Shown: positions 3,603 to 59,513, counted from the first letter of the stretch. The stretch is DNA of 64,000 bases from Patescibacteria group bacterium (GCA_041671225.1 JBAZBY010000001.1:961130-1025129), one strand, 5' to 3'. Numbers and translations are program-made. The notes: generated by a model not told the origin, from the sequence alone.

Positions 3603-4105
3603 GCTCCTATGCGCCCCTTCCCGCGGATCTCATCCTGCCGAAGAGCATCAGGAATCCCCTCCTGTTGCTGACCCTTCCGAGGCTCCGCCTCATCGAGAGA
3701 ATCGCCGGCTCTACTCTGCTGGTGAGTATGGTGGCGTTGGTGCTGGCGATTCGCTTCGGCGATGCGCTCGGTGCGTGCATGTTCCTCGCGCTCTCAGTGC
3801 TCTCCGCCGAGTACTGGTCCGGCGCCGGTGCGCTACGAATATCCGGATACTACGTCCGACTCTTCAAGCACTGCTGGATCCGGAAGGCGCTGCTCTCCAT
3901 CCCCGCCCTGCTGTATGGGGTATGGCTCATCCGGAGCCCGCACTCCGGATTCAGCGAGACCGACATCGCGGCCGGTATCGTCGTGCTGATCAGCAGCATC
4001 GCGCTGCTCCTCCCCACCTGCGACTGGAAAGGCCTCACCGATCCCTTCATCGCAGAGGACGACCCTGATTGTGCGGATGCCCGGCATCCCCGCGTCGACG
4101 ACTGA
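3599..4105 (+). CDS. Hypothetical polytopic membrane protein, GC-rich (foreign-looking)
   Basis: AGGAGG RBS 6 nt upstream. About 4 hydrophobic helices. Translationally coupled to 3393..3602. No recognisable family. Confidence 0.45.
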   Translation: MSSYAPLPADLILPKSIRNPLLLLTLPRLRLIERIAGSTLLVSMVALVLAIRFGDALGACMFLALSVLSAEYWSGAGALRISGYYVRLFKHCWIRKALLSIPALLYGVWLIRSPHSGFSETDIAAGIVVLISSIALLLPTCDWKGLTDPFIAEDDPDCADARHPRVDD

Positions 4106-15535: not shown

Positions 15536-15799
15536 ATTTTGTGCCTAAGGGGGGGGTTCTATTTTGTAGAACATCCTGTTTTCAGTCATTGCTCATTCAC
15601 CGTTCTTTTGCACTCACTCTCACATACTCTCTCGCTTTCCTGGGACGATATCCCGGGTAAAACGAAAAGCCAACGAAAGGTTCAAATAATCTGCTTGCTC
15701 ACACAACCCTTTGAAAAAGGGGGGCAACATGCTAGACATAAAAAATTTGAATTTTTTGTTGGCTTTTTCATTACAAACATTACTTTTTCCATAACATAT

Positions 15800-21907: not shown

Positions 21908-22004
21908 AAATGGCATACTGTGGGAGCCTCTGGTGGCTTTGCTCCGGGGCTCCCACATTGGGAATTATTCATACAAATCAACGTCATTTAAGAAAATCCT
22001 ATCT

Positions 22005-25000: not shown

Positions 25001-25199
25001 CACGCAGCAGCATCTCGTGGTCCCCGGCACCATCATTGATGACACCACGGCACAACCAACAGGCAAGGTACTCGGCGCGGAAGATCTCGCAGAAACCGGT
25101 GCAGGACTCATGGAATACATCATGTTTACGCTTGCCGCACTTATGATCGGCTTTGGTATCTTCGGCATCCGTAAAGCGAACATCATCAAAAACGACTAA
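22005..25199 (+). CDS. Second sortase-anchored surface protein (1,065 aa): dockerin-like Ca-binding repeats, Cys-rich CxxCDDGNxxxGDGCSxxC repeat, prealbumin-like and DUF11 domains, LAETG sorting signal
   Basis: Signal peptide MKKYYKPAKIALNVIAIIAMVFYPGGFALVGNAAHG. Four repeats of C..PLDY..(D/E)DG.LG.DG...L.DA..F....DVN(D/G)(D/N)GEVDD...CAK.YY..GEYAC. Myxococcus-type Cys-rich repeat CGDASVNQETEQCDDGNITSGDGCSSICQIE. C-terminus GKVLGAEDLAETGAGLMEYIMFTLAALMIGFGIFGIRKANIIKND. Confidence 0.85.
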   Translation: MKKYYKPAKIALNVIAIIAMVFYPGGFALVGNAAHGSTTGNGNPGSIKTTNVDCGSVQTNVNHYDVGDHVYIHGNGDDKGRTFDPGTYDWDITGKPGKASQHPNTVVAHGSFTVDATGIFCFDAYTILPGDGGTYGVTFNDKHDNYRVHNPAVCTNPLDYVDDQGNLGEDGEVSLSDATYFTNLFKPNSLTAKDPAADVNDDGEVDDDDKNCAKKYYSTGEYACPIECDDEEGGKKDKSSQQTVEPTTICSSPLDYVHEDGTLGADGKIGLGDAAKFEEYYATQDSKANVYIGNELSEQDVVDSHDQVCADKYYATGEYACALACPEDYFDQELTLSTEITPKSNPLVFQPVCTEGSAWANEVISSDQGTKNDGGVIDLNRSDATQVLGANDGVFFSLGRKIDHPYGGTITVKFAHPVVNIAGADLTLYEVTNGDRVAYGVEKAQVSVSQDGITWGLSGEINNQAPTGIGEIDISNTGTGWTWIQYVQITDATDFESEFSGIPSADGYDLNAIQATYQLCSCVSPLDLNSSDGTNVPDGEIGLSDATLWTQYFLNDNPRSDVNGNGVKDYGDYLCAKPYFADGGPYTCDIECAAVCGDASVNQETEQCDDGNITSGDGCSSICQIEPQTGSLTICKYNDVDLNGTYDDGTDLPLQWSMTVDALSGSNEGDTWFTGTNSETGCVTLEGFPYGNYDVTEATVEGWTGTYPSDTDMQNVTLDAETPNPVVTFLNAQNTPASLTISKTDGLETADAGATLPYAITVTNTGETEATGVEVVDAIPTEVASVSNISDSGVEGAGIITWENLTIPALSSITLTFDGILNAEFPDGTTIVHNEATLDCSEPNQELSFAVLDVVCPFSGTGTDDTSVTITPEKVVITTAPILTIEKNVDKSSVVAGSNVTYTITITNNGDGTAENVVLADPLPGDFYITLNNNTAYNESVGDLAAGDAVTTSYTVTIPSDTANGDYVNTATVSASNYADISDSATVTVSRPGRVLGEDTQQHLVVPGTIIDDTTAQPTGKVLGAEDLAETGAGLMEYIMFTLAALMIGFGIFGIRKANIIKND

Positions 25200-39670: not shown

Positions 39671-40204
39671 CTATGACGACGGCGATATGATAATATAGAC
39701 GTCGTCGAGTTCGATATCCGATCCCCCAGGACCGGCATTGTTATCGTCATTATATACATTCTGCGCAATGCCATTGGGACCAAACGAACCAATGACTGCC
39801 TCCCACTGCTCACCAGCAGAAGGATCAACATCATAATCCGTATCAAGAAAATAAGGATTTCCCCATGGGTCAACGGGCAGGAATGGAACATAAGGACCCT
39901 GCCAATTCGAAAAACTGCCATCCGTAGCCACGATGCCGGCCACATCAGTACTCAGATCCCAAACTTCGTTGCCGTCCACACCTTGATGTGTTACTGGTGT
40001 TTGCGCACCAGGCCAGAGGCCGGTATCAAATTCTAAAATTCGTATCGCGGTTGCAAGAGTCCGTACATCACCCTGCGCATCTGCAATCCTCCCCTTATCG
40101 CGAAGATCCGGCAACAGTGCAAGACCAACGGCAGCCAAAATCCCGATAACAGCAATTGTCACGAGCATTTCAACGAGGGTAAAACCTTTTTGATATTTTC
40201 GCAT
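39671..40204 (-). CDS. Type IV pilin / T2SS pseudopilin-like protein
   Basis: Class III signal MRKYQKG|FTLVEMLVTIAVIGILAAVGL (prepilin N-methylation site). Confidence 0.75.
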   Translation of the reverse strand: MRKYQKGFTLVEMLVTIAVIGILAAVGLALLPDLRDKGRIADAQGDVRTLATAIRILEFDTGLWPGAQTPVTHQGVDGNEVWDLSTDVAGIVATDGSFSNWQGPYVPFLPVDPWGNPYFLDTDYDVDPSAGEQWEAVIGSFGPNGIAQNVYNDDNNAGPGGSDIELDDVYIIISPSS

Positions 40205-44324: not shown

Positions 44325-47300
44325 TTATGGAACCTGTTCTATATGCTCCGTTGGAGGCTTGGTGTCGCCGCCAGAACTATTTGTATTTGTCGTGCAAGCA
44401 CCTCCAGCAGTACAGGTCTCACCAATTTGGCATTCATATCCGCACATCGTGCAATTCAATACAAGTGTCCCGCCATCACACAAATAGCCATCTACATTAC
44501 AGGTATTCAGCGCTGTTCCGTCAGTGCATTCCCCCGCGGAAAAACATCCGAGCTGACCTACATCACAGGTATGGAAGGTAAAGGGTCCATAGAGGCGCAT
44601 ATTTCCATCAGCATCCTGGAGGCGAATTGTGTAGATGTAATCGGTATCGAACGTCAACCCGGTAATCTGATAGCTATGACTTGTTGCAAATTCGGGGCTG
44701 GTTATTACGCTTGAAGGAGGATTAATCGTTCCCCAGCTCACCACTGCTTCTGCGCTTTCATCTGACTGGAATGATATTGTTGTACTGCAGCCTACTGATC
44801 CACAATATATTCCAGCAAAGGGACTAATAAGTACCGGCGGTTCTGTATCGCCTGTGACCGGCTGTTCACAATCAATAGCATGCGTTAGCAACGCATCCGT
44901 GTACGGGATGCCGGCGGTGTCATAGTAGTACCTTGCGATTGATCCAGACGGTACAACAGTTTCTGGTACGCAGAGTGAAAAGTCATAGTTCCCTTCTGGC
45001 CCGACGAATGTGGCACTTATAGTACGCGCTGGGAACGTTGCTGCATCAAAGCCATTTTGCCACATGACGAGCGAAAAAGCGTCTCCAAGAGAACCCTGAA
45101 CTGTTTCGCCTTGTGCCCATTCATTATTCGCAGGGTAAAGCGTTCCCATACCCTGTGCGTTTCGGACAAAGTCATAGCCATGATCAACATCAAGACCTGT
45201 GCTCGGGCTGATACTGGCATTTGTCACCTGCAACGGAACGAGTGCATCTGCCAGCAGCTCACCACACGATGCAATGGTTGCCATTTGAGTGAGCAATACA
45301 TCCGTGTACGGTGTGCCACGAGCATCAAAGTAGTACCTTATGGTTTCGCCATACGGAACAAGAGTCTCCGGGATACAGAGCGGGAGATTAAATGCACCGT
45401 CTGGACCGACGAACGAGGCATTCAGAACCCGTGCCGGTAATGCCATCGGTTCAAAGCCATTTTGCCACATGACGAGCGAGAGCGGATCAGCAGTGGTGCT
45501 TGGAACTGTCTCACCCTGAGCCCACTCATTATTCAACGGATACAGCGTTCCCATACCCTGTGCGTTTCGGACAAAATCATAACCAAAGTCCTGGCTGAAT
45601 GTATCAATAACAGCGCTGATGCTCATATTTGTTACCTGAAGTGGAACAAGTGCATCTGCCAGAAGCTCATCGCACGGCGCAGTCGTTGCCATCTGGGTAA
45701 GCAGCGCATCTGTATATGGGGTGCCGTTGGTGTCGTAGTAGTAGACAGGGTTCGTCGCGTCTGGTTCATCGCTCACAACCGTCTCCGGCATGCAGAAGGT
45801 ATGGGTGCCGAGGTCGCTCTCGAGAGAGAATATATTTGCCGGAAGCGTGTATACACCACCGTCAAATGCCTCAAAGGTGAGGGCAAGCGGGATGGTGCTG
45901 CCAGCAAACGGCAACTCGCTGCTATTATTGAAGGTTGTGCTGCTGGCAGAGAACCCGCCGAGGAGGACGTCGTGGCGCCGGAAATCCAAACTCACATGAT
46001 CCACTTCCGCATTAAGGACGCCATTGGTGAGATCGGTGGGGATGTAGGCATTCGCAAGAAGGTCATCGCAGTCTGCGGTCGTGGCACGCTGGGTCAGCAA
46101 TACATCTGTGTACGGGGTGCCAGTGGTATCGTAGTAGTAGACAGGGTTCGTCGCGTCTGGTTCATCGCTCACAACCGTCTCCGGCATGCAGAAGGTATGG
46201 GTGCCGAGGTCGCTCTCGAGAGTAAACGTATTTGCCGGAAGCGTGTATACACCACCGTCAAATGCCTCAAAGGTGAGGGAGAGCGGGATGGTGCTGCCAG
46301 CAAACGGCAACTCGCTGCTATTATTGAAGGTTGTGCTGCTGGCAGAGAACCCGCCGAGGAGGACGTCGTGGCGCCGGAAATCCAGACTCACATGATTTAC
46401 TTCCGCATTGAGGACGCCATTGGTGAGGTCGGTGGGGCGGTAAGCATTCGCAAGAAGTTCGTTGCACGGCTTGGTCGTCGCCATCTGGGTAAGCAACGCA
46501 TCTGTATATGGGGTGCCGTTCGTGTCGTAGAAATAATGCAACCCATTTGATCCATCATAATTATCCCACGCAAAGTCAGGTACGTCGGAATCTGGAATGC
46601 AGAGATCAATGGCTCCCTGATCCGTTTCCAAGGTAAAGACATTTCCTGGAAAATGCGTTTCTCCTTGTGATGCCAGAATCATGTACAACGTCGATGTCGT
46701 CGGCGTATCTTGCAATGCACTTCCGGCACTGAACGAGTTTGTATTCGTGTCATACAAGGCCATCGTCGACATGAAACGCCGGAAAATCAACGAGAAGGGG
46801 TGAACCGTGGATGGCATTTCCACCAGATACTCTTTATCTGACGGGACAACGGGAACAGCTGGTGCCTCAGGAATCTCATTCACGAAACTTCCGGCAAGTA
46901 GTCCACCGGTCAACGCTGATGGACTGAATGACTTTGTCGCTGTCGTTCTGCAATCACCCGGATTCACCTTCTGCCGCAGACCCCGGTCAGCGTATGTATT
47001 CCCATACCTGTCCACCCAATACCGATATGGCTGCGTAATCGGTTCTATCGAAAATGGCGTTTGCGCATTCGCCGTTGGTATACCAAAAAGGGACTCTGTG
47101 GCGGATGTGCCTTTCGTAAGGGCCACATACTCCCGGGAAGAAGGAATACAGACGATGAATCCGGCTGTGCTGTTAGATAGAGTGAGATTGATTGCCGCAT
47201 GCTCTGTGTAAGTTTCAACATAGAGTGGCAGTGCTGTTGGTGAAGAGCCATCATATGTTTCTGTATTATCCGGAAAGGACCATACGCCAAATTCTACAGG

Positions 47301-47582
47301 ATTATCTAAACTTCCCGTCCATCCCTGGTACTTCAGAGTAATGCCCAGGTCTGACGTAACCGGCACAGAGAGATCCAGATCCGTGATGCGCATCGGGATG
47401 TTTTGTGGCTGCCAGGGCAGCTTCGGCAATTTCTTTATCGGGATTGCACCAATTCCCATTGCAAGCCCTGCGCCGCCGAGGAATGCGCCGAGCATCATAA
47501 CGGACACAAGTATGCGCTGTGCAACAGGAAGGCCGGTCTTGACCTCAATGCTAGTATCCTGCTGGAGTATTTGATTTGCCAT
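44325..47582 (-). CDS. Large secreted/anchored protein with at least four ~130-aa tandem repeats (YYYDT(N/T)GTPYTD(A/V)LLTQ...) and a Cys-rich C-terminal knot
   Basis: N-terminal TM anchor. Two near-identical 132-aa repeats plus two diverged copies. C-terminal CNVDGYLCDGGTLVLNCTMCGYECQIGETCTAGGAC. Confidence 0.6.
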   Translation of the reverse strand: MANQILQQDTSIEVKTGLPVAQRILVSVMMLGAFLGGAGLAMGIGAIPIKKLPKLPWQPQNIPMRITDLDLSVPVTSDLGITLKYQGWTGSLDNPVEFGVWSFPDNTETYDGSSPTALPLYVETYTEHAAINLTLSNSTAGFIVCIPSSREYVALTKGTSATESLFGIPTANAQTPFSIEPITQPYRYWVDRYGNTYADRGLRQKVNPGDCRTTATKSFSPSALTGGLLAGSFVNEIPEAPAVPVVPSDKEYLVEMPSTVHPFSLIFRRFMSTMALYDTNTNSFSAGSALQDTPTTSTLYMILASQGETHFPGNVFTLETDQGAIDLCIPDSDVPDFAWDNYDGSNGLHYFYDTNGTPYTDALLTQMATTKPCNELLANAYRPTDLTNGVLNAEVNHVSLDFRRHDVLLGGFSASSTTFNNSSELPFAGSTIPLSLTFEAFDGGVYTLPANTFTLESDLGTHTFCMPETVVSDEPDATNPVYYYDTTGTPYTDVLLTQRATTADCDDLLANAYIPTDLTNGVLNAEVDHVSLDFRRHDVLLGGFSASSTTFNNSSELPFAGSTIPLALTFEAFDGGVYTLPANIFSLESDLGTHTFCMPETVVSDEPDATNPVYYYDTNGTPYTDALLTQMATTAPCDELLADALVPLQVTNMSISAVIDTFSQDFGYDFVRNAQGMGTLYPLNNEWAQGETVPSTTADPLSLVMWQNGFEPMALPARVLNASFVGPDGAFNLPLCIPETLVPYGETIRYYFDARGTPYTDVLLTQMATIASCGELLADALVPLQVTNASISPSTGLDVDHGYDFVRNAQGMGTLYPANNEWAQGETVQGSLGDAFSLVMWQNGFDAATFPARTISATFVGPEGNYDFSLCVPETVVPSGSIARYYYDTAGIPYTDALLTHAIDCEQPVTGDTEPPVLISPFAGIYCGSVGCSTTISFQSDESAEAVVSWGTINPPSSVITSPEFATSHSYQITGLTFDTDYIYTIRLQDADGNMRLYGPFTFHTCDVGQLGCFSAGECTDGTALNTCNVDGYLCDGGTLVLNCTMCGYECQIGETCTAGGACTTNTNSSGGDTKPPTEHIEQVP
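45700..46491. repeat. Near-identical 396-bp tandem duplication inside CDS 44325..47582
   Basis: Plus-strand shadow ORFs 45790..45999 and 46186..46395 encode almost identical 69-aa peptides offset by exactly 396 nt. Confidence 0.8.
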
Positions 47583-50652: not shown

Positions 50653-50715
50653 AACAAAAATACCTAAGATATATGCAATTGTACTATATTTCCTTTGTTT
50701 TGCATATATATGAAC

Positions 50716-50744
50716 TTGACAGAAATACATAGATATGGTATGAT
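50716..50744 (+). promoter_or_regulatory. Near-consensus sigma70 promoter P1 (TTGACA-17-TATGAT) at the island edge
   Basis: TTGACA 50716..50721, 17-nt spacer, TATGAT 50739..50744. Confidence 0.55.
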
Positions 50745-50820
50745 GCTCGGTTACACTGAAATGGGGGGAAATAGTGCTGGTTGAATACCTGTCAGCATCT
50801 ATTGTTCTATCTCCAAGAAC

Positions 50821-50849
50821 TTGACAAATTGGTGATAAAGTGGTATTAT
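50821..50849 (+). promoter_or_regulatory. Near-consensus sigma70 promoter P2 (TTGACA-17-TATTAT)
   Basis: TTGACA 50821..50826, 17-nt spacer, TATTAT 50844..50849. About 25 nt upstream of the first copy of the conserved island leader element. Confidence 0.55.
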
Positions 50850-50873
50850 ATGCTGTTACGGTAAAAGACCGCT

Positions 50874-50950
50874 CATTACAAGAAAGCATTTCAGCGAGGA
50901 ATCTACGGTATCACACCTTGTGTGGGGTACTGTGGATCCCTCGCTGATCA
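50874..50950 (+). repeat. Island leader element copy 1: CATTACAA-N8-TTCAGCGAGGA-[37-nt loop]-TCCCTCGCTGA
   Basis: Seen directly. The same architecture recurs at 51642..51720, 52498..52592, 53754..53835, 54908..55047, 56146..56230, 57199..57264 and 58205..58290. Confidence 0.6.
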
Positions 50951-51051
50951 AAAGGCGAGACAACGCATCGGCAAATACGCCGATGTAACACCCCCCTACG
51001 GTTTAACCCCGTAGCGTTGTACCAGAACGAAATCTGGTAGAGGCAATAACG

Positions 51052-51423
51052 ATGCGTATCAACGAGCTTCTCCTGGTCGATCCCGAGTCCAACTGCACGC
51101 AACCAACAGTACCCGTCCCAGAAGGGAAAAATCACTACGCATTCCAGGTCGCCATAATCCGTCAGGACGACGGTTCCTATACTTGGCGCGGACAAAGCCA
51201 GTATCTGCCCAAGGGGGTTTTGATGGGATTCGCCCTCATCCACTTCGTCGGCGATGATGATGAGAAAGATGAAATCCCACTCGATATCAACCCCGTAGCG
51301 GTTGAGATGCTGGGAATCCATGGAGCCACTTTTCGTGGGTGGACGTGGGATAACCACTACGTCGACTGGGCGGTAAGTAACATGGGTCGCGTTTTTGCAG
51401 CCCAGTTCTCTCACCTCGCCTAA
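51052..51423 (+). CDS. Hypothetical protein (island gene 1)
   Basis: 123-aa ORF with GC-rich codon usage, preceded by a ~100-nt structured leader. No family recognised. Confidence 0.45.
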   Translation: MRINELLLVDPESNCTQPTVPVPEGKNHYAFQVAIIRQDDGSYTWRGQSQYLPKGVLMGFALIHFVGDDDEKDEIPLDINPVAVEMLGIHGATFRGWTWDNHYVDWAVSNMGRVFAAQFSHLA

Positions 51424-51641
51424 CTCCTCACTCGTTCACTCTTCGCCGAAGACACGGCCTAGAGCCCCACCCTGGGGATCAAGGGGAGGCTGGCATGAGC
51501 CCGCAGCCGATGCGTCGCAGCATACACGACGCAAAGTGGAGCACCACACGGGCAACGTTCTTCGGGAGAGACGCACAATGCTTCGGCAACGTGCGTCTCC
51601 CCTTCACCTGAGTTAATCACGCACTGTGGTTGGTTCAGAAG

Positions 51642-51720
51642 AAGGTGTTCATTACAACAATTTCAGCGAGGAATCTACGGTATCACGCCTTGTGCGGGGT
51701 ACTGTGGATCCCTCACTGAA
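51642..51720 (+). repeat. Island leader element copy 2 (GGTTCAGAAGAAGGTGTTCATTACAA...TTTCAGCGAGGA...CCCTCACTGAA)
   Basis: ~90 % identical to copy 1 over the hairpin. Lies in the 1.2-kb gap between island genes 1 and 2. Confidence 0.6.
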
Positions 51721-52610
51721 GCTCCTAACAATCAATACGTCAGCGAAGGAAACGAGGGGGTGAGTCCCTCCACTCTCCCCCTCTTTCCCCTCGCTGGCAA
51801 TAACGTTTAGCGAGGCTCCGGCATCCGTCCACAGGATTGATGCCAAGTCCAAGGAGGGCTCCGATGGAAAAGAAGCAGCCCACAAGCAGCACCAAGAAGG
51901 CCCCAGACGGTTACCGCCACCTGACCCGCGCGGAGGCCGATGCCATCTGGCGTCGGGCATTCTGGCTCGCTTGGACCTCGCGGTACTAGCGAAGTTCTCG
52001 AGGGAAAGCTCTCACAACAATTGTCCTTTGGCATCTGGCGCGGCAAGCAAAACCCGCGCCTCCCTCTCCAGCACAGAAGACTTCTGTTCTGAAGAGGGAT
52101 TCTCCTACGCCCCGTCTTCGCAAAGCTTTGACGGGCTACGGCGAACAAGTGCTCATTCTCAATCTTATGAGGGAGCGGAAACGGCGGTTCAAGAATTAAG
52201 CCTCCTCGGCCGCACGCCCGCTCCCTCACCCCCCAATGATCCTGCAACCGCAGAATCAACAGTCCCCATGGGGAACGGCATACGAGGTGGATAAGTGAAT
52301 GCTCTTCACGCCCCTCGAAACCGTTCCCCAAAACTTTCGCTCGCACTGTTATGGAGGGGGATGCCGAAACGGCTTTTTGCCGCACGGCTCACGGCAACAG
52401 GAGCAGACAGCCTGGTTCACACTCGGCTGCCCGCCTCCGACTGCCACGCGGGAATGTGCATTCGTGCACCAACTCCCGCATCACCTCCAGAACAGTCCGT
52501 ACGAAGAAGGTTCATTACAATATGATGGTTTGTACCACGACCCTTATAAGAGGATGCTTCACGTCCTTTCATAAGGGTCGTATGGTACGACTTCTGGCGA
52601 TCACCGGCCG

Positions 52611-53207
52611 ATGGTGAAAAAGGAACGGCAATCCGTGAAAAAAAAGATCGTGTTGGCCGGTCCACCTCGGTCCGGCAAGTCCTGTATGCGTGAGGGGTTG
52701 AAACAAGCCCTTTTCACAATCCCCGGCTCGCCGTATCCGTATGTGATTACGGCCTGCCCGGACGGTGAAGGGGCGTGGTTCCAGGAAACTGTGAACAACA
52801 ACCCCGAGCTTGCGGCGGCGTGCAAGGCGGCCTACAAAGCCAAGTTCACGCCGGAGTTCGTCGAGCGCATCAAGACTTCGGTCGAGAGGTGCTCACTCGA
52901 GCTCACGCTCGTGGACATCGGGGGCATCACCTCCGTTGAAAACGAGCAGATCTGCGCCGCGGCGACGCACATCGTCATCCTCGCGGGTGACATGAGCAAG
53001 GTCGCCGAGTGGCGCACGTTCGCGGCAAAGCTCGGGCTTACCGTGGTTGCGGAAATCCATTCCGACTACCACGGAACCGAGGACACCGTTGAGCGCGTTA
53101 GCTCTGACGGAATCCTCCGGGGGTCCGTGCATCACCTCGAACGGGGTGAGCAAATTGCGGATCGTCCGATGATCCGCGCACTCGCCGAGCATCTCCTCTC
53201 CATCTGA
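52611..53207 (+). CDS. P-loop NTPase / small kinase-like protein (island gene 2)
   Basis: Walker A IVLAGPPRSGKSC. LVDIGG (Walker B / switch-II-like). ~190 aa. Alternative GTG start at 52635 has a better RBS. Confidence 0.5.
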   Translation: MVKKERQSVKKKIVLAGPPRSGKSCMREGLKQALFTIPGSPYPYVITACPDGEGAWFQETVNNNPELAAACKAAYKAKFTPEFVERIKTSVERCSLELTLVDIGGITSVENEQICAAATHIVILAGDMSKVAEWRTFAAKLGLTVVAEIHSDYHGTEDTVERVSSDGILRGSVHHLERGEQIADRPMIRALAEHLLSI

Positions 53208-53285
53208 GTTTCTGAAGGAGGGCAACACCTACCCTCTCAACCCGACACACGCCGGCTCAAGGTGAAGCTGGCACTGGAGGGCAAC

Positions 53286-53630
53286 ATGCCCGTGTACAAG
53301 ATCGACCGAGTCGCCGTAACCGCCACCTCTGCAGCCGTCCCCGCCGACCTGTTCAAGGTAGGCTTCGGGGACCCCGCCCAGAACGATGCCATCGTTCGGG
53401 CGGCCGAAATCCGCATCCCCGAGCTCGGCGAGCTCGGTGGCGAGCTGGCCCTCATCAACGGGCCGGCCAGCCTCCCCGTGGCGGTGGTCATCGCCCACCG
53501 TCTACTCCACGCCTACGGCGCCATCGGGGTCTTCGACCCCAAGATGAGCGCCTACGTGGTTGCGGCGGCCCACGGCGACAAGTTCGCTGTGGGGGACCTG
53601 ATCCCCGCCGAAACCGTCGTCGAGTCGTAG
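53286..53630 (+). CDS. Hypothetical small protein (island gene 3), probably co-transcribed with the P-loop gene
   Basis: GGAGGG 6 nt upstream of ATG 53286. 114 aa with no recognisable family. Only 55 nt after gene 2 and no leader element between them. Confidence 0.45.
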   Translation: MPVYKIDRVAVTATSAAVPADLFKVGFGDPAQNDAIVRAAEIRIPELGELGGELALINGPASLPVAVVIAHRLLHAYGAIGVFDPKMSAYVVAAAHGDKFAVGDLIPAETVVES

Positions 53631-53753
53631 ACGACCATCGTTCACCTCTCCTAACCTAGCATCCGCTGGGTGGCAGATAGGAGATTCGTCCTTTCCGGAG
53701 CGCAATCTGCCTGCGCTCCGACTTTCCGAGCACATCACAATACTCGTGGTGCG

Positions 53754-53835
53754 TTCAGAAGGTTAAAATGTTCATTACAACTATTCAGCGAGGAAATCTG
53801 TTGTGCTATATGCACGATGGGTTTCCTCGCTGAAG
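53754..53835 (+). repeat. Island leader element copy 4
   Basis: GTTCAGAAGGTTAAAATGTTCATTACAACTATTCAGCGAGGA-[loop with GTGCtatatGCAC]-CCTCGCTGAAG. Confidence 0.6.
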
Positions 53836-53986
53836 TTCGTCGGCTCCGGTGAGGTTTGCCCCGTTCCGAGGGGATTGCGCGACGCAATGCACTGCCCCGC
53901 TTGCAGGGGATTGAGAATGGAGGGCTTCACGCCCGCAATTACCCTACACAGGTGCTCTAGAAAATGAGCACGGAAAGAGAACGGAC

Positions 53987-54820
53987 ATGTCACGGAATCT
54001 CAACGTCGTCTTCAACTACGGCAACACTGTCACCATCGAGGAGATGGAACCCAACACCATCTACCTCGACGGCGCATGTCGCGGTCCGGCGATCGACGCC
54101 GCCCGCAAGGCCTACTCCTTCGACCACCACGCGGAGTGTCTGCGGTTCGCGACCCTCTCGACGTGCGAGCAGGTCTTGCTCGCTCTCGAACTCGGCCTCA
54201 ACCCCGTGAACTTCCGGGTCGTAATGAACGACCTGGACGCGGACGGGAGCCTCTCACTGTGGATCCTCCGAAACCCCGACAAGGCACAGAACCCGCAAGT
54301 CCGCGCTATGGTCGCGCAGATCGGATTCGTGGATTCCCACGGTCCGGTTCGCGTTCCGGCCAAGCTCCACAAGAGTCTCAGTCGGAACCCCCGCGTCCCG
54401 CAGACGATCGACATGCTCTGGGAGGATCAGGGCAAGATCGATGCGTGGTTCGCGGGAGGTGATGAAGCGCTCCCCGAGCCGTTCAGATTCCCGTGCGCGC
54501 CGGCCTTCGGGCTGACGCAGGACGGTGAGCTCGTCGAATTCGACGCGGCCGCGGACTTCGCCGACATGTATGCCGCCGGCTGCATGGTCGGAGTGATCTG
54601 TGGTGCTGGGCCGGAAAACACCATGGGCTACACCGTGGGCAAGCGCTCCGACTTCGTCGCCTACGACATCCCCGGATTCCTCGCTCGTATGAACGAGCTG
54701 GAAGCCGGCTGGGGCGGCGGCTCCACCATCGGTGGGGCTCCTCGTCTGGAAGGTGGGAAGCGATCCGCGCTTCCTGTCGAAACCGTCAAACGGGAGTTCC
54801 GCTCCATCGCGAGCATGTAG
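53987..54820 (+). CDS. Hypothetical protein (island gene 4). Contains FDHH and DLDADG motifs, but not in canonical DHH-family order
   Basis: 277 aa with GC-rich codons. Followed by the conserved post-stop hairpin CCCCTCCTCGGCAGCCGGAAATACCGGAT. Confidence 0.45.
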   Translation: MSRNLNVVFNYGNTVTIEEMEPNTIYLDGACRGPAIDAARKAYSFDHHAECLRFATLSTCEQVLLALELGLNPVNFRVVMNDLDADGSLSLWILRNPDKAQNPQVRAMVAQIGFVDSHGPVRVPAKLHKSLSRNPRVPQTIDMLWEDQGKIDAWFAGGDEALPEPFRFPCAPAFGLTQDGELVEFDAAADFADMYAAGCMVGVICGAGPENTMGYTVGKRSDFVAYDIPGFLARMNELEAGWGGGSTIGGAPRLEGGKRSALPVETVKREFRSIASM

Positions 54821-54907
54821 CCCCCTCCTCGGCAGCCGGAAATACCGGATCCCGCCTTCGCCTTTCGGGCTACGGCGGATAAAGAAGATTGATCTTTTCT
54901 CCTGTGG

Positions 54908-55047
54908 GGAGCGTGACTGCCAACGCTCCTCCCAACACCCGAGTCCCGGATATACATCCGAGGTTCAGGAAGTTGGAATGATCTTTACAAATACACTTCA
55001 GCGAGGAGATCTGTACAGAATATTTCTGTATGGGTTCTCTCGCTGAA
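54908..55047 (+). repeat. Island leader element copy 5, extended module: GGAGCG-TGACTGCCAA-CGCTCC / TCCCAACACCCGAG / hairpin / TTCAGGAAGTTGGAA / CTTTACAAA / TTCAGCGAGGA-loop-TCTCGCTGAAG
   Basis: Pairs with copy 6 at 56146..56230 through compensatory substitutions (GGAGCG/CGCTCC versus GGAATG/CATTCC; CGGATatacATCCG versus TTGAATCatagATTCAA). Confidence 0.65.
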
Positions 55048-55239
55048 GCCATATCCAAAGGCCAACGCGAGTGCTGCCCCGAGGCGTGGGGATTTCGTCA
55101 GGTTCTTGTTCTTGCCCCGTATGTGGGGATTGCGTAGAAAGCGCTTTCCACGAACGTGGAGGCAAAGCAACCTGTGCGGTAACCCGCACGTCGAGCCCAA
55201 GCCAAACCGAAAGGTACGGGCGAAGGGCAAGGAGTAGCC

Positions 55240-56082
55240 ATGTCAGTATATCGCGTGTTCACGATTTCTTCCGGCGCAGTCAGTGAAGGCGCCAAAATCG
55301 ACATCCTCCCCCTGAAGGGCGCGGGAATTACGATTCCCGCCGTCATCATCGGCGAGGAGGGGCGAGGTCGCGAACGCGGCGTCGTCCCCGTCGGAAACCC
55401 GCCGACCGTCCCCTGCCCGCGACGTGGGCAGGAAATTTCCGGCTCGACTCTTGCCAGATTCAAGGCGCCGGAAAGGCCGGCGACCTGCGAGTGTGGCGTT
55501 GCGCTTCCCCTGTGGGGGAAGCGTCCGGACGATTCCGGGTACTGGTTCGTCCAGCACCCGGATACCGGAAGCGTCCCCAGCCGCCTGATGGCCGCCGAGA
55601 TCGGGGCCACCAAGGCGGGAAAGCCCAAGTTCTGGGCAAAGCCCGCGGCGGACACGACGGAAAAGGTCCTCGTCGTATTCCGAACCCGGATGGGGTACCG
55701 GGGTGGAAACGACCACACCGGCGACCGGAACGGCTTGTTCCGAGTCGGTGACTCCTGGGACCCCTGGGCGGCGTCGGGGTTGACGCTCGAGGAGGCGCAG
55801 GCTCTCTGCGCCGAGCACGAGGTCGACTCGTCGCGTATCCGCCCGGACGGCTTCCTGCCGTTCCCGGGCGAGGTTATCACCCGCGGCTACATCGCCCAAG
55901 GCGGCGCGGGTCGGATGGGCGGCGGCGAACAGCTCGTCGCGCTCGTCCCGAAAGACGTCGTCTTCAGGACGTCCTACTCCGGCCGACTCTACGGCGGCCC
56001 CGGCGCCCACTACTACGTGTGGGACGGCGAGAAGGTTCTCGCCGCCACGTGGGAAGAAAGGTCGGCGGCCGACCTGTTCTAG
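55240..56082 (+). CDS. Hypothetical protein (island gene 5)
   Basis: AAGGAG RBS. 280 aa, Gly/Pro-rich. No family recognised. Confidence 0.45.
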   Translation: MSVYRVFTISSGAVSEGAKIDILPLKGAGITIPAVIIGEEGRGRERGVVPVGNPPTVPCPRRGQEISGSTLARFKAPERPATCECGVALPLWGKRPDDSGYWFVQHPDTGSVPSRLMAAEIGATKAGKPKFWAKPAADTTEKVLVVFRTRMGYRGGNDHTGDRNGLFRVGDSWDPWAASGLTLEEAQALCAEHEVDSSRIRPDGFLPFPGEVITRGYIAQGGAGRMGGGEQLVALVPKDVVFRTSYSGRLYGGPGAHYYVWDGEKVLAATWEERSAADLF

Positions 56083-56145
56083 CCTCCCCTCCTCAGGCAG
56101 ACCGGAAATTCCGGATGAGGAGCAACGCTCTTTTACCCCTGCGGA

Positions 56146-56230
56146 GGAATGTGACTGCCAACATTCCTTCCAACACCCGAGCTTTGAATCATAGATTCAA
56201 GGTTCAGGAAGTTGGAAAGTTCATTACAAA
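56146..56230 (+). repeat. Island leader element copy 6 (extended module, see 54908..55047)
   Basis: GGAATGTGACTGCCAACATTCC-TTCCAACACCCGAG-CTTTGAATCATAGATTCAAGG-TTCAGGAAGTTGGAAAG-TTCATTACAAA. Followed by further hairpins to ~56330, including a 13-bp stem CCCTCCTTTTTAG...TTAAAAAGGAGGG. Confidence 0.65.
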
Positions 56231-56420
56231 TCAATTCTACTTCACCCCCATGAGATATTCTGCAGGGGTTCACTTCCCTCCTTTTTAGCCCTTTCATATG
56301 AGAGTGTTAAAAAGGAGGGAGGTACGGCACCGTGGTGGTGCTGTGGTCCCTTCGGTTCCGAAGGAGTACGTCCTGTGATGGGACACGCTCATTTCGGCCC
56401 CGCTTGGCTCGGGGTAACTC

Positions 56421-56918
56421 ATGAAGGAGGAAGCCATGTTCCAGATTCTCTTGACCCGCTCGCATTTTGAAGCCCTCGTTCTCGCCGCGACGGACATCGC
56501 GGCGAACGGTCGGCCATGGGGGCCAGTCGTAACCGAGACCGGGTGGGCGACCCGGTTCGATGGTGGCGGCAACGTCCGCACCCCCAGCGACTTCGTCTCG
56601 CTATACGGCGAGGCAAGTAGGTGGGGGAAAAAGGAAGGGCACGAGCCCTGCTTGTACGCACTCGTGGAGTGCGATGCCTGGTCGCACGACCGCGACCGGG
56701 CGTGCCGCTACTTCCTGCGGCACAAAACGTTTGCCCAGAGCGACCTCGTCCTGGACAACGACGGACTCGACCATGTCGAATCCGCGGCGACTCGCGGTGG
56801 CGAATGGGAGGTCGTCGCCGAGACGGACGTGCCTGAGCACGCCCGAAAGGTGATGGAGAAATCCATCGCCACCGTTCGCGAGCTCTTCGGGCAGGGAGGA
56901 GACTTCTTCGAGGTCTAG
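56421..56918 (+). CDS. Hypothetical protein (island gene 6)
   Basis: GAAGGAGG RBS. 165 aa. Followed by post-stop hairpin CCTCCTCGGCAGTGAGGAGG and a TGACTGTCCA-loop hairpin (GGACG-TGACTGTCCA-CGTCC). Confidence 0.45.
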   Translation: MKEEAMFQILLTRSHFEALVLAATDIAANGRPWGPVVTETGWATRFDGGGNVRTPSDFVSLYGEASRWGKKEGHEPCLYALVECDAWSHDRDRACRYFLRHKTFAQSDLVLDNDGLDHVESAATRGGEWEVVAETDVPEHARKVMEKSIATVRELFGQGGDFFEV

Positions 56919-57593
56919 CTACCCTGCCCCTCCTCGGCAGTGAGGAGGCACAGTACACCCGAGGACGTGACTGTCCACGTCCTCACAACTACAGCACCGG
57001 AGGTGCTTGATGAGACCGCTGCAGTTGTAGCGGGCCAAGGGGAGTGATTCTCTCCAGATGGGGCCCTCAAAATACCGCCAAACATAAACATCCCCGCTGC
57101 AGGGCACGCAGCACGCGGGAGGGGCAGCAACGAACAACCGCTGCCTCTCCCCACCCTTCCGAACGTTGAACACTTGTTCAGCCTTCAGACAGGTGATCGC
57201 TCATTCTCAACACTTCAGCAAGGAACTTTGAACCAACGTGTTTGGCGCAAAGTCCTTTGCTGAAACGGATACGCAAGGGTACGTATTCCATGTTCGGGAG
57301 AAACGAAACGACCCATGGCGCTTACACGCACGCCGACGGGCACACGCCTCTCAGGTGGAATACCGATGTATGGAGAGGACTAGTCCGAACAAAATCTAGT
57401 CCTCTCCGCCTTTCCCTCAATATGGTCATTTACAAATCATTGACAAATCGTGCAAATATGCTAGGGTAAGCTGTTCATTTTTGTGCAGCGTGCACGTCTG
57501 ATGGCAACAAAAAAGCCGCAAGACGTGTCTGCTGCACCGCTCTCACAGCAGATGGCATCATGCCCTTTTCACATGAGAGCAAAGGAGGAGCAC

Positions 57594-58088
57594 GTGAAGA
57601 GCTCCAAGGGTTTCACCCTCATCGAGCTGATGATCATCGTGGTCATCATCGGCATCTTGGCGGCCATCGCCATCCCGAACTTCCTCTCCATGCAGGACCG
57701 TGAGCGTGAGGGCAGCGTGAAGGCCAACATGCACACCGTCCAGCTGGCGGTGGAGGACTTCTCGACCGAGAACAACGGCTTGTACGCCACGTCGGCCACG
57801 GACGCGCTCCCGAGCGGCGAGATCGTCCAGGACATGTGCCCGGGAAACGTGTGGCCGGAAAACCCGTTCGGAGGAGACGTGACGGAGGTCTACTGGACCA
57901 ACAACTTCTCCGACATCGTCCCGTACGTCCCTGCGAGGGACGACACGACGACGTGCCGATGGGGCGGCTTGGAGGTGGAGCCGCAGCGCGGCGATATCTA
58001 CATCATGAGCGACAGCGCTGGGTACGCCATCTACGGTCTCGGCGCCAGCGGGCAGCCGCTGAGCCTGATGCTCCGCAACGGCTACTGA
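57594..58088 (+). CDS. Type IV pilin-like protein (island gene 7), GTG start
   Basis: AAAGGAGGA RBS 5 nt upstream of GTG 57594. Leader VKSSKG|FTLIELMIIVVIIGILAAIAIPNF is a class III prepilin signal. Confidence 0.65.
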   Translation: MKSSKGFTLIELMIIVVIIGILAAIAIPNFLSMQDREREGSVKANMHTVQLAVEDFSTENNGLYATSATDALPSGEIVQDMCPGNVWPENPFGGDVTEVYWTNNFSDIVPYVPARDDTTTCRWGGLEVEPQRGDIYIMSDSAGYAIYGLGASGQPLSLMLRNGY

Positions 58089-58204
58089 CGTCCGCTCCTT
58101 TGCAGGATAACTACCTGCCGTACAGCAAGATTGGGAGACGCTTGTGGTCTCCCCTTTTCCGAGCCACAGAACCACTCATCCGGCTATGCCGGATTCGGGT
58201 TCTG

Positions 58205-58290
58205 GGTTCAGAAGAGGTTGCCCTTTACAAATATTTCAGCGGGGGAATTCTGTACCTCATGTTTTGCGGTGCAGTATTCCCTCGCCGAAG
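58205..58290 (+). repeat. Island leader element copy 8 (GGTTCAGAAGAGGTTGCCCTTTACAAATATTTCAGCGGGGGA-loop-TCCCTCGCCGAAG)
   Basis: Same architecture as the other copies, with a variant stem. Confidence 0.55.
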
Positions 58291-58347
58291 TAGTAGTACG
58301 CGAGGCATCATCCGCGGCAACGGCTGCGGACAAGGAGGGTCTCACCT

Positions 58348-58914
58348 ATGAGACTTGTTGGACGGGTTCCTGGAGAGAACGAACGGTTGGTGGCAGCCAT
58401 GGCCCGGCGTGGAATTCCCGCCAAGGTCGTGACCAACGCGACCGTCGTGAACCTGCTTATGGTGGACGGGCTGGGCGTGTACCAGCTTCCCCCGCGTATC
58501 AAGCGCGCTCATCTCCGCATCCAGGTTGCAGAGTACGGCGGGTGGAAGCAGGAAACCCAAGTCATCTGCAGCCCAGGCGGGCACCCCATGCGGCCGTTCT
58601 ACATTCCGCGCCGGGGAAACCTGGCTGGTGGCAAGTTCCACGCGCTGTTTTCTTGCGTGGAGTTCGTAGGCCTGGAGCTCAAGGGCAGCAACGTTCTGAA
58701 GCTCACCAGCGTTGCCATCGAGGTGGATGGCAAGACCGCCCGGATCGTGCCCAGCACACTCTGGGAGGGCAATGTCGACGCCTTCCCCGACGAACTGTGG
58801 AAGTTCCGCGACGCGGCAGATGCCGCGCTCACCAAGGCTGCCTGCCGCGATTGCACACACGTGCACTATGCGGCCATGCCCCCAACCGAACCCCAACCCC
58901 AGAGGAAGAAATGA
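58348..58914 (+). CDS. Hypothetical protein (island gene 8)
   Basis: AAGGAGGG RBS. 188 aa. Stop overlaps the next start (ATGA). Confidence 0.45.
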   Translation: MRLVGRVPGENERLVAAMARRGIPAKVVTNATVVNLLMVDGLGVYQLPPRIKRAHLRIQVAEYGGWKQETQVICSPGGHPMRPFYIPRRGNLAGGKFHALFSCVEFVGLELKGSNVLKLTSVAIEVDGKTARIVPSTLWEGNVDAFPDELWKFRDAADAALTKAACRDCTHVHYAAMPPTEPQPQRKK

Positions 58915-59321
58915 ACATCACGATCCCGAATCTCGCAATCGAAGCCGCGCGCGGCTTCAAGGCAGTCATCGTACACCAGGACAACAACTGGGAGCCGGAC
59001 AGGGCTCCGCAGATGACCGAAGTGAACGGTGAATGGCTGCTTGCCGACGCCGAACAGTTCGTCGGCCCAGACAAGCAGTTCAAGGTCGCGGTGATTGGCT
59101 TCGCAACACAGTCCGAGGCGTTCACCTCGTACTGCAACCGCAACGACGCCGGGCTGGTCATCGGCGGGCCGCCGATGAACCACCCGGATAATCCGGATCT
59201 AGCGATCAAGAAGTTCTTCTGGGACGATGCCAGGAAGATCATGTTCCTGCTCGTCCCGGGCTACTGGGTCTACATGACACCGGGTGGTAACTGGAACAAC
59301 CAGTTCACCGCACTCCCGTAA
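58911..59321 (+). CDS. Hypothetical protein (island gene 9), translationally coupled to gene 8
   Basis: MNITIPNLAIEAARGF... 136 aa. The track ORF 58131..59321 is a 5' over-extension. Confidence 0.45.
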   Translation: MNITIPNLAIEAARGFKAVIVHQDNNWEPDRAPQMTEVNGEWLLADAEQFVGPDKQFKVAVIGFATQSEAFTSYCNRNDAGLVIGGPPMNHPDNPDLAIKKFFWDDARKIMFLLVPGYWVYMTPGGNWNNQFTALP

Positions 59322-59406
59322 CTTCAACGGCTGACACCTCAGCTACGCCCACTGCTCCTTCATCCCTCAACCGTGTTTGGGACGGTACCGCATAAAAAAC
59401 CGTCCA

Positions 59407-59437
59407 CCCGAAGCGCATGCGCTCCGGGTTTTTTCTT
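59407..59437 (+). terminator. Intrinsic terminator closing the island
   Basis: CCGAAGCGCATGCGCTCCGG followed by GTTTTTTCTTT. Confidence 0.55.
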
Positions 59438-59513
59438 TACAAAACCTTCACGCTCACATATACTCATTGCAATTTTCCCATGCCACCCCCTGCCTGATTG
59501 GAGGTATGCTCCT

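Follow-up and report, generated by a model that had tools for sequence, protein, structure and literature searches.

A recurring structured leader module with a boxA-like stretch and a long hairpin in a GC-rich gene island of a Patescibacteria genome

We analyzed a 64-kilobase (kb) stretch of DNA from the metagenome-assembled genome of a Patescibacteria group bacterium (GCA_041671225.1, JBAZBY010000001.1:961130-1025129), here referred to as the window, and in it a GC-rich island at 50.65 to 59.44 kb in which a structured leader module recurs ahead of small genes. A preliminary description of this DNA had presented the island as ten plus-strand genes forming eight separate units, each flanked by a leader and a terminator. 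All of the genes are on the plus strand, and the count of ten resolves into nine open reading frames (ORFs) at 51052-59321 and a micro-ORF of 41 amino acids (aa). The island has a GC content of 0.589, compared with 0.507 in the remaining window, and the GC content at third codon positions is 0.76-0.92 in the island genes (0.62 in gene 1) compared with 0.47-0.73 in neighboring genes. On the right side, GC drops to 0.41-0.50 by 60 kb. On the left, the divergent ABC transporter genes (48.5-50.65 kb) already have a GC content of 0.56-0.58, and the boundary is marked by a promoter region of 0.33 GC with no sharp step. It was probably acquired horizontally. The non-coding gaps, first given as 260 to 1,190 nucleotides (nt), range from 54 to 675 nt when the micro-ORF is counted, and the value of 1,190 nt is obtained only if it is ignored.

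The preliminary description had recognized no protein family in the island apart from a P-loop NTPase and a pilin, both of which were borne out; further assignments could be made for genes 2, 3, and 4. Gene 2 (52611-53207, 198 aa) matches positions 102-285 of the PADLOC Csx3-AAA model (PDLC01045) with an E value of 7e-60 and corresponds to its P-loop (AAA) half; it has no sequence match in the PDB. Gene 3 (53262-53630; 122 aa from a GTG start or 114 aa from an ATG start) carries the Csx3 domain: it matches positions 10-101 of the same model (E value, 1.4e-16) and Pfam PF09620 (Cas_csx3) above the cutoff (E value, 1.6e-5), and it matches TIGR02579 weakly. Genes 2 and 3 are therefore a Csx3-AAA protein split into two halves, with a predicted ring-nuclease activity. 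Csx3-AAA is an accessory ring nuclease of type III CRISPR (clustered regularly interspaced short palindromic repeats) systems fused to a P-loop domain. Both of its halves are matched here, but they are encoded by separate genes 54 nt apart, with AAA first and Csx3 second, which inverts the arrangement of the fused model. The 64-kb window contains no cas genes and no CRISPR array; instead, the pair is conserved beside the gene 5 family. Among the other loci that carry gene 4 or gene 5 relatives, which, together with contigs found by searching for the module, are designated by L-numbers below, homologues of genes 2, 3, and 5 occur together in L012, L032, and L033. L013 and L039 have homologues of genes 2 and 5 only, and in L002 a 40-aa ORF (9828-9950), a C-terminal remnant of a Csx3-like gene, lies beside the gene 5 homologue.

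Gene 4 (53987-54820, 277 aa) has no match in Pfam and no sequence match in the PDB. Its FDHH, NDxDxD, and GGxxxxGGxPR motifs are invariant, although their order is not colinear with that of canonical DHH proteins, and its predicted structure is DHH-like, suggesting a divergent DHH/DHHA1-like phosphoesterase fold. Gene 5 (55240-56082, 280 aa) belongs to a conserved family of more than 340 clusters with variable Zn-ribbon inserts and no known fold (no matches in the PDB or BFVD), annotated by NCBI as hypothetical protein. In most cases, a homologue has a higher GC content than the entire locus that holds it (0.60 versus 0.38 in L016, for example). Several of the contigs (L012-L042) are binned as Bacillota, Clostridiales, Gammaproteobacteria, Campylobacteraceae, and Anaerolineales metagenome-assembled genomes, reflecting either a wider distribution or mis-binned Patescibacteria contigs. 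A full-length homologue with 36% identity also lies amid hypothetical genes of two cyanophages, Pseudanabaena phage PA-SR01 (L051, 131265-131861) and phage Pam2.

Gene 6 (56421-56918, 165 aa) belongs to a small family with 25 representatives. Gene 7 (57594-58088) is type IV pilin-like, being 164 aa long from its ATG or 201 aa from a GTG at 57483, with an N_methyl motif (E value, 6.9e-8) and matches to NCBIfam pilin models; a second gene similar to pilins and to type II secretion system protein G is located outside the island at 39671-40204 on the minus strand. Gene 8 (58348-58914, 188 aa) is an ORFan that retrieved only itself among 5.8 billion clusters, and gene 9 (58911-59321, 136 aa) overlaps it by ATGA. 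No family was found for gene 9 or for gene 1 (51052-51423, 123 aa) in Pfam and NCBIfam or, for gene 1, in PHROG and PADLOC. The micro-ORF (51864-51989) is basic, has the ribosome-binding site (RBS) aaggaggg, is also present in the contig gene calls, and gave no match in a family-model search. Pfam and PHROG searches of the island proteins and flanking genes detected no phage structural, integrase, or transposase families; the pilin was the only PHROG match.

Two tandem promoters point into the island, P1 at 50716-50744 (TTGACA-17-TATGAT) and P2 at 50821-50849 (TTGACA-17-TATTAT), each with a TG extension and each scoring 11/12 in a sigma70 consensus scan, in agreement with their earlier description as near-perfect. 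These were the only promoter-like sites that the scan found aimed into the island. A further promoter had been proposed ahead of the pilin-like gene, but the TTGACA at that position is followed by a poor -10 hexamer (TAGGGT) and fails the scan. At the right end, the intrinsic terminator noted near 59.4 kb was located at 59405-59436, where CCCGAAGCGCAUGCGCUCCGGG followed by UUUUUUCUUU forms a hairpin with a U-run that folds well. No internal canonical intrinsic terminator was detected by scanning the plus strand of the island, and separately terminated transcription units are for this reason unsupported. Because only two promoters and one terminator were seen, the simplest and most likely reading is that the island would be transcribed as one sigma70-driven unit of ~8.6 kb.

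The leader module is present in eight copies, A to H, all on the plus strand and spaced 0.77-2.2 kb apart. From the second unit on, its parts follow in the order of a GC-rich hairpin (H2), a long irregular stem-loop (SL2), a single-stranded stretch resembling boxA, and a long hairpin (H4). Module A (50871-50947) consists of the boxA-like GCTCATTACAA (50871-50881) and the long hairpin (50890-50947), which accords with the observation that the first unit carries only the core leader part. It starts 22 nt past the -10 hexamer of P2 and 14-25 nt past the expected P2 transcription start; the absence of SL2 directly behind this promoter is as expected for an RNA element at the 5' end of a transcript. 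Module B (51564-51720), which has the micro-ORF as its cargo, comprises H2 at 51564-51602, SL2 at 51603-51643, the boxA-like stretch at 51647-51657, and the long hairpin at 51662-51720. In module C (52510-52590), the boxA-like GTTCATTACAA (52510-52520) precedes a long hairpin of different sequence at ~52530-52590 (z score, -5.9). Module D (53696-53834) comprises H2 at 53696-53720, SL2 at 53721-53763, the boxA-like stretch at 53770-53780, and the long hairpin at 53784-53834 (z score, -7.75), and 3' of it lie two UGCCCCGnnnnnGGGGAUUG hairpins (53857-53913), of which more copies are found at 55075 and ~55113.

Module E (54821-55047) begins with a post-stop element, CCCCUCCUCGGCAG, and a small hairpin, followed by H2 at 54906-54931 with the loop UGACUGCCAA, SL2 at 54932-54976, the boxA-like GATCTTTACAA at 54980-54990, and the long hairpin at 54997-55047. 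Module F (56083-56323) likewise starts with the post-stop element and continues with H2 at 56145-56168, SL2 at 56169-56216, the boxA-like stretch at 56219-56229, a small hairpin, and a long hairpin of different sequence at 56272-56323. The degenerate module G (57117-57264) has H2 at 57117-57151, SL2 at 57152-57195, GCTCATTCTCAA at 57201-57212, and the long hairpin at 57214-57264, and module H (58133-58286) has H2 at 58133-58153, SL2 at 58154-58216, the boxA-like GCCCTTTACAA at 58220-58230, and the long hairpin at 58233-58286. The preliminary description had assigned a recurring module to units 2-8. The module does recur in them, but the hairpins of copies C and F are unrelated in sequence, copy G is degenerate, and outside these units copy A lacks the upstream part. 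The leaders of D, E, and F are paralogous over ~300 nt and have in common the post-stop element CCCCUCCUC(A)GGCAG, with repeats at 54821, 56083, and 56925 that correspond to the second recurring hairpin reported after stop codons. Two UGCCCCG-N5-GGGGAUUG hairpins follow H4 in these paralogous leaders. The H2 loop is identical in E and F and complementary to the post-stop GGCAG, while the H2 stem covaries between the two copies (GGAGCG/CGCUCC versus GGAAUG/CAUUCC).

The module is confined to the island. The pattern GNYCWTTACAA has seven matches in the window, compared with 0.53 expected, and all seven are in the island on the plus strand. The hairpin arm TTCAGCGAGGA occurs exactly at five sites, none of them outside the island; four are plus-strand matches, and the fifth, read on the minus strand, is the 3' arm of hairpin D. 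None of 100 shuffles gave eight matches to TTCAGCGAGGA with one mismatch. In all eight copies the long hairpin folds better than shuffled sequences, with z scores of -3.5 to -7.8. H4 is 51-61 nt long and forms a stem of 22-25 base pairs (bp), or about two helical turns. Its base is a conserved 10-bp helix (UUCAGCGAGG/CCUCGCUGAA), and its interior is free in sequence yet paired: 12 of 26 pairs change on both sides with pairing kept, all 12 of them in the inner stem. Pairing is biased toward the plus strand in D and E, where 23 pairs form versus 14 and 11, respectively, on the minus strand, owing to G-U pairs. These stems have the dimensions of an RNase III substrate (~20 bp or more of near-continuous double-stranded RNA [dsRNA]) and are thus candidates for cleavage by this enzyme.

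To describe the structure upstream, we folded the 136 nt located 5' of each TTACAA. H2 and SL2 were found in B, D, E, F, G, and H and in one copy on a metagenome contig, L043, described below. The 5' strand of SL2 is a conserved linker, UUCCGAG / CCAACACCCGAG, and the GGTTCAGRAG(UUGG) box forms its 3' strand. Covariation is seen in the outer pairs of SL2, which read CCAAC/GUUGG (E and F), CUUUCC/GAAGG (D), GACAUUC/GAAUGUU (L043), and CACC/GGUG (G); a column-wise count of SL2 covariation was dropped because the copies align in different registers. Since the GGTTCAGRAG box pairs and covaries with an upstream strand, it is, in the predicted fold, one strand of a helix and not the free motif that it had first been taken for. 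The idea that a 30-nt box in the module is a CRISPR-type repeat was rejected on the same ground and for want of any array. The sole conserved stretch that is left unpaired is (A)AUG(U/A)UC(A/U)UUACAA.

The same features bear on whether each module is instead an island-specific promoter, with GGTTCAG as the -35 element and TTACAA as the -10 element, that would make the island eight transcription units, each starting with a stabilizing 5' hairpin. A block of ~30 nt is conserved upstream of the hairpins, including those of L043, and a transcript beginning with such a hairpin would be stable. However, the distance from one box to the other is not constant but varies by 3 nt, no T stands at -7 in the "TACAAN" hexamer, the GGTTCAG box pairs and covaries as described above, and the spacer from TTACAA to the hairpin is as short as 1-3 nt, so that a start site there would truncate the hairpin. 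Moreover, module A lacks the GGTTCAG box yet lies right behind a canonical promoter, the sigma70 scan was negative at all modules, and related islands carry ribozymes immediately upstream of the corresponding elements, which implies read-through. We therefore consider a promoter function quite improbable. A sigma54 or other unusual promoter was rejected as well, since the copies keep neither a constant GG/GC spacing nor a fixed distance between the boxes.

Searches of Rfam assigned the module to no family. At gathering thresholds, the whole window contained three tRNAs and nothing else; the tRNA-Phe, tRNA-Val, and tRNA-Pro genes are located at 37.5 kb and 40.3 kb. Relaxed searches of the island (50.5-59.6 kb at E values up to 1 and 53.6-57.3 kb at E values up to 10) gave only spurious matches to miRNA models, which fall on the long hairpins. 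Eight related loci searched at gathering thresholds yielded one tRNA. Scans for the exact pattern of the module were negative for viral contigs and for 185,579 species-representative genomes, whereas metagenomes gave a single contig, L043. We also built a covariance model (R1) of TTACAA and H4 from six window copies. R1 recovered these six, missed C and F, whose hairpin sequence differs, and identified two further copies on L043, a contig unrelated to the window, where they precede different small genes on one strand. The second of these also keeps the 3' strand of SL2 and the boxA-like part (GTTCTCAGAATGTTGGATGATCTTTACAAC), and the L043 island carries, in addition, GCTCTTTTAAAAC followed by a 20-bp hairpin. 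Apart from L043, R1 found no copies in loci with gene 4 or gene 5 homologues, indicating that the exact hairpin sequence is restricted to a lineage. The covariance search proposed in the preliminary description thus extended the module to a second genome with other cargo. The module is neither a scattered miniature inverted-repeat transposable element (MITE) nor limited to one genome, and it travels with diverse small cargo genes.

The occurrence of one module before different cargo could also be explained if the hairpins were sites of single-stranded DNA recombination or transposition, such as attC, IS200/IS605, or repetitive extragenic palindrome (REP) sites, and the units were mobile cassettes. 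The outer arms are conserved and the inner part is variable, as in attC, the cargo includes ORFans, and TTAC lies just 5' of the hairpin, as it does at the left end of IS608. In opposition to this, no integrase, TnpA, or REP-associated tyrosine transposase (RAYT)-like gene is present in or near the island, the arms do not resemble the attC cores RYYYAAC / GTTRRRY, the module forms part of a longer, RNA-like leader with several hairpins and a downstream RBS, and the family extends to leaders with boxA, a hairpin, and gene-strand ribozymes. We regard this explanation as very improbable. For integrons in particular, there is no IntI, attI, or attC core (the arms are TTCAGCGAGGA / TCCTCGCTGAA) and no recombinase in the island or the flanking genes searched. 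Integron arrays are similar in having co-oriented, diverse small genes, some of them ORFans, and palindromes with conserved outer and variable inner parts, but the palindromes here lie 5' of genes in RNA-like leaders with an RBS, and the spacers are far longer. Likewise, no TnpA(Y1) or RAYT domain was found in the island proteins, the flanking called genes, or ten upstream ORFs, which speaks against an IS200/IS605 or REP/RAYT element, and Tandem Repeats Finder detected no CRISPR array. The locus is not an artifact, a prophage remnant, or a known cassette system, in keeping with the earlier remark that it was recognizable neither as an integron nor as a CRISPR array or a known prophage layout.

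In a different part of the window, a tandem repeat at 45661-46517 (unit of 396 nt, 2.2 copies, 89% identity) lies within a minus-strand ORF at 44325-47582 (1085 aa, no Pfam match), and two very large plus-strand ORFs adjoin each other at 15539-21907 (2122 aa) and 21846-25199 (1117 aa).

A leader of the same architecture with its own sequence dialect is found in L014 (Yonathbacteria), in which the gene 5 homologue is preceded by six or more small genes on the plus strand. After most genes of L014 there is a hairpin with a U-run, then another hairpin, an exact TTGTTCTTTGAAAAAG, a hairpin of 23-27 bp, and an RBS; these post-stop hairpins look terminator-like by inspection and were not captured by the terminator scan. 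TTGTTCTTTGAAAAAG, which we take to be the boxA of rRNA leaders and spacers in Firmicutes and many other bacteria, precedes at least five small genes together with the 23-27 bp hairpin. In loci of other Patescibacteria that carry relatives of genes 4 and 5, a canonical boxA (UGUUCUUUGAAAA) is followed by hairpins of 18-32 bp, and a boxA-like stretch with a long hairpin precedes genes in L012, L022, L034, L005, L047, and the L043 island. Of the sense boxA-like matches, 16% had a hairpin of 18 bp or more in the 100 nt downstream, compared with 3% of antisense matches and 3% of random sites. Among regions upstream of gene 5 homologues, 7 of 32 matched GYTCTTTRAVA at 10 or more of 11 positions, versus 6% of background windows. 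The match to the boxA consensus is 11/11 in L012, L014, L034, and L047 (at 9075), and a site at 7944 in L047 is a boxA intermediate with one mismatch. The L047 sequence TGTTCTTTACAAAA is one base different from window copy E (TGATCTTTACAA) and one base different from the majority form (TGTTCATTACAA), and thereby appears to bridge the canonical and window variants of boxA at the sequence level. Within the window, the stretch has the context of a boxA site, in that it is single stranded, on the transcribed strand, downstream of a promoter, and beside stem-loops.

These loci hold further structured or conserved features. L048 has the closest relative of gene 4 (74% identity) in an island of high GC content, where two further motifs recur between genes, GUCCRUUGGACUUCCU...GGGCAGCGCAAYGGRC at 7650, 9440, and 10135 and GGUUUGUGUGUUCC...GAACACUCC..GGCGGAGGUYAGCC at 9355 and 10035; neither the locus nor either motif has an Rfam match, and both motifs are candidate structured RNAs. 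In L044 (Magasanikbacteria), a motif GAGGGCGCAAGAGCUG...CUAUUCUGA is repeated after two genes (2790-2890 and 3790-3900), and the gene 4 homologue lies ~770 nt, with one 57-aa ORF, upstream of an mCpol (PF18182) gene. In L004, UUUCAGRCGAUCACGCGRUGGUCGGAUGAAA occurs just before the RBS of three genes (8800, 9214, and 9985), each time after a hairpin and a U-run; this lineage-specific leader element has GGUCGGAUG in common with the long hairpin of L014. A TrmB-family regulator gene adjoins the start of three independent islands (L004, 6865-7608; L048, 5655-6494; L049, 6590-7372) and could regulate them; no such gene is beside the window island. A gene of the CCA-adding/poly(A) polymerase family is located within ~1.5 kb of the gene 5 homologue in L004 (12395-14035) and of the gene 4 homologue in L045 (10024-11463).

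The related loci also contain type III hammerhead ribozymes. We found 14 copies with intact cores, distributed over 10 loci; every copy is encoded on the gene strand, and the opposite strand has none. All three of their stems covary, with 95% of cells paired and 11 of 16 pairs changed on both sides, a level reached by none of 500 shuffles; two of the copies, in L047, match Rfam HH_3 with 27 and 21.9 bits, below the gathering threshold. In L012 (2916), L014 (6250), and L047 (9045), the hammerhead lies directly 5' of the boxA-like stretch, the position that SL2 occupies in the window. The window itself contains no hammerhead detectable with a regular expression, and none was found by Rfam at the relaxed E values given above. 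Intercistronic ribozymes on the gene strand indicate read-through transcripts that are subsequently cut, and since such ribozymes only make sense inside read-through transcripts, the independent mini-transcription units of the preliminary description are not supported by promoter, terminator, or ribozyme evidence; it was right in stating that the genes share structured boundary elements. Taken as a whole, that account was partly confirmed, in that its module, genes, and promoters are real. At two other loci, we noted that the annotated start of the gene 5 homologue of L002 (10001-10885) overruns a hammerhead at 10014 and is probably mis-called, and that L051 has no hammerhead in the 8.4 kb examined.

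Cleavage at these positions raises the question of whether the module is purely a processing or stability element (an RNase Y/E-type site in the AU-rich stretch, guided by the hairpin 3' of it, an RNase III hairpin, or both), with its likeness to boxA being incidental. In that case, cleavage would release single-cistron mRNAs, each bounded by H2/SL2 at its 3' end and by another hairpin at its 5' end. The long hairpins are near perfect and span about two helical turns, and stable hairpins flank the single-stranded stretch on both sides. The presence of hammerheads at the same intergenic position in related islands suggests that site-specific cleavage is a selected function, and one self-cleaving motif can stand in for another in gene settings of this kind (PMC6765202). 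Processing alone is compatible with most of the data. What it leaves unaccounted for is that a boxA-like stretch and hairpin are kept directly 3' of the hammerheads in L012, L014, and L047, where a cut is already provided, and that the motif matches the boxA consensus at every position in L014, L012, and L034. We consider this explanation, the main rival, doubtful but worth serious weight.

Our tentatively preferred reading, which we hold to be possible and no stronger, is that the island is one operon whose intercistronic leaders carry a boxA-type Nus-factor site beside a long dsRNA hairpin. The modules would thus resemble nut sites and rRNA leaders and serve antitermination, processing, or both. 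The single-stranded stretch would be a lineage-specific boxA, a loading site for NusB/NusE as in rRNA leaders and lambda nut sites, and its reloading before each cistron would keep RNA polymerase elongating through 260-675 nt of untranslated, folded RNA. The long hairpin would be a dsRNA element, like the lambda RNase III hairpin between nutL and the N gene, that sets or protects the 5' end of each processed cistron. In related islands, a canonical boxA and a long hairpin hold the same position, and there a hammerhead would often cut the transcript.

Several points weigh against this proposal. The spacer between the boxA-like stretch and H4 varies from 1 to 42 nt, and copy G pairs better on the minus strand. 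The window motif matches GYTCTTTRAVA at 9 of 11 positions, a score that ~40% of random 365-nt windows equal, and this consensus is gamma-proteobacterial; since such a score is not distinctive, the identification of the window stretch as boxA rests on the architecture and on the intermediates in related islands. All fetched loci lack rRNA, from which a leader boxA of Patescibacteria might have been read. An AU-rich single strand beside a hairpin is also typical of an RNase Y/E cleavage site. Because no internal terminators were detected in the window, the target of antitermination here is assumed to be Rho or structure-induced pausing, and we infer rather than observe Nus-factor binding, the involvement of Rho and RNase III, and cleavage.

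The proposed arrangement has partial counterparts. The lambda N leader runs from the nutL boxA-boxB through an RNase III hairpin to the RBS of N, and the leader of rRNA operons runs boxB-boxA-boxC and then into an RNase III processing stem. The window leaders are like these in having a boxA-type strand amid stem-loops followed by a long hairpin and an RBS, in the promoter-proximal order of hairpin, boxA, and hairpin, and in belonging to long, poorly translated, highly structured transcripts. They differ in that lambda and rRNA leaders have one module per operon, whereas the window has eight in 8.6 kb, before every cistron; in that the window variant UGUUCAUUACAA, a predicted Nus site, departs from canonical boxA; in that the window has no N-like protein and no boxB consensus; and in that its hairpin is a local stem-loop of 22-25 bp instead of a long-range stem.

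Outside rRNA operons, boxA is found ahead of CRISPR arrays (PMC7665894), as well as suhB and ribosomal protein genes (PMC5725501), where it controls Rho termination or translation. The gamma-proteobacterial consensus is GYTCTTTAANA (PMC5725501), but boxA varies among phyla, and it protects untranslated CRISPR transcripts (PMC7665894). These sites share with the modules a 5' position on non-rRNA transcripts; the cases studied, in Proteobacteria, are in contrast single in each unit and have no obligatory long hairpin and no ribozyme association.

A third point of comparison is the neighborhoods associated with self-cleaving ribozymes, which likewise contain small uncharacterized genes split by structured intergenic RNAs; in the related islands, type III hammerheads occupy intercistronic positions on the coding strand. 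Such neighborhoods have been described mostly in Firmicutes and phages, however, and the window has no recognizable ribozyme. Bacterial hammerhead, twister, and related ribozymes share associated genes for reasons that have not been resolved (PMC6765202), and the pistol, hatchet, and twister-sister classes were discovered in gene neighborhoods of this kind (PMC4604425, PMC6765202). In the literature searched, the gene 5 family, the DHH-like protein, the split Csx3-AAA, and Patescibacteria do not appear among described ribozyme neighborhoods, and nothing links hammerheads or Csx3 to Patescibacteria.

This precedent invites the alternative that the leader, or a part of it (H2 with its UGACUGCCAA loop, GGCAG, and SL2), has a catalytic or ligand-binding function, for instance as a new self-cleaving ribozyme, and takes the place of the hammerhead. 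SL2 is located exactly where related islands have the hammerhead, just 5' of the boxA-like stretch; the H2 loop identical in E and F, its covarying stem, and its complementarity to the post-stop element would fit such an RNA; and no Rfam family was matched even at the most permissive E value. On the other side, the motif is known from two genomes with thin covariation, the loop is not conserved in B, D, G, and H, and SL2, a plain irregular hairpin, shows no obvious junction of several helices. A twister-like "ACUGCCAA...CCCAAC" was rejected, being not conserved in copy D and having no twister match at E values up to 10. A new RNA of this type is, in our estimate, improbable. It is similarly unlikely that the islands are an undescribed home of ribozyme-associated genes, among them the gene 5 family, the DHH-like protein, and the split Csx3-AAA, in which the window leader (H2 loop with a possible pseudoknot, SL2, and long hairpin) holds such a catalytic or processing RNA and the 2',3'-cyclic-phosphate and 5'-OH ends left by cleavage may be substrates of the conserved proteins. 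Csx3 would then make or handle the cyclic-phosphate ends, with a possible kinase in the P-loop domain and a possible phosphoesterase in the DHH protein.

Returning to the boxA-type reading, the window is apparently a lineage-specific member of a widespread and undescribed leader architecture of Patescibacteria, made of known parts (boxA, long hairpin, and hammerhead) on a conserved, uncharacterized gene set. The composite leader, a boxA-like stretch with an 18-32 bp hairpin and often a hammerhead, is a candidate RNA family found in at least eight Patescibacteria lineages, with no Rfam match and no description in the literature searched. The locus ties hammerheads to concrete protein families, namely, gene 5 with its novel fold, the DHH-like phosphoesterase, and Csx3-AAA, two of which plausibly act on oligonucleotides or RNA ends. 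New processing RNAs might naturally be sought in islands where no known ribozyme is recognized, such as those of the window and L048. If the boxA reading is true, rRNA-style Nus antitermination would be reloaded before every protein cistron, an undescribed arrangement that would show how bacteria with minimal genomes express long, structured, poorly translated transcripts.

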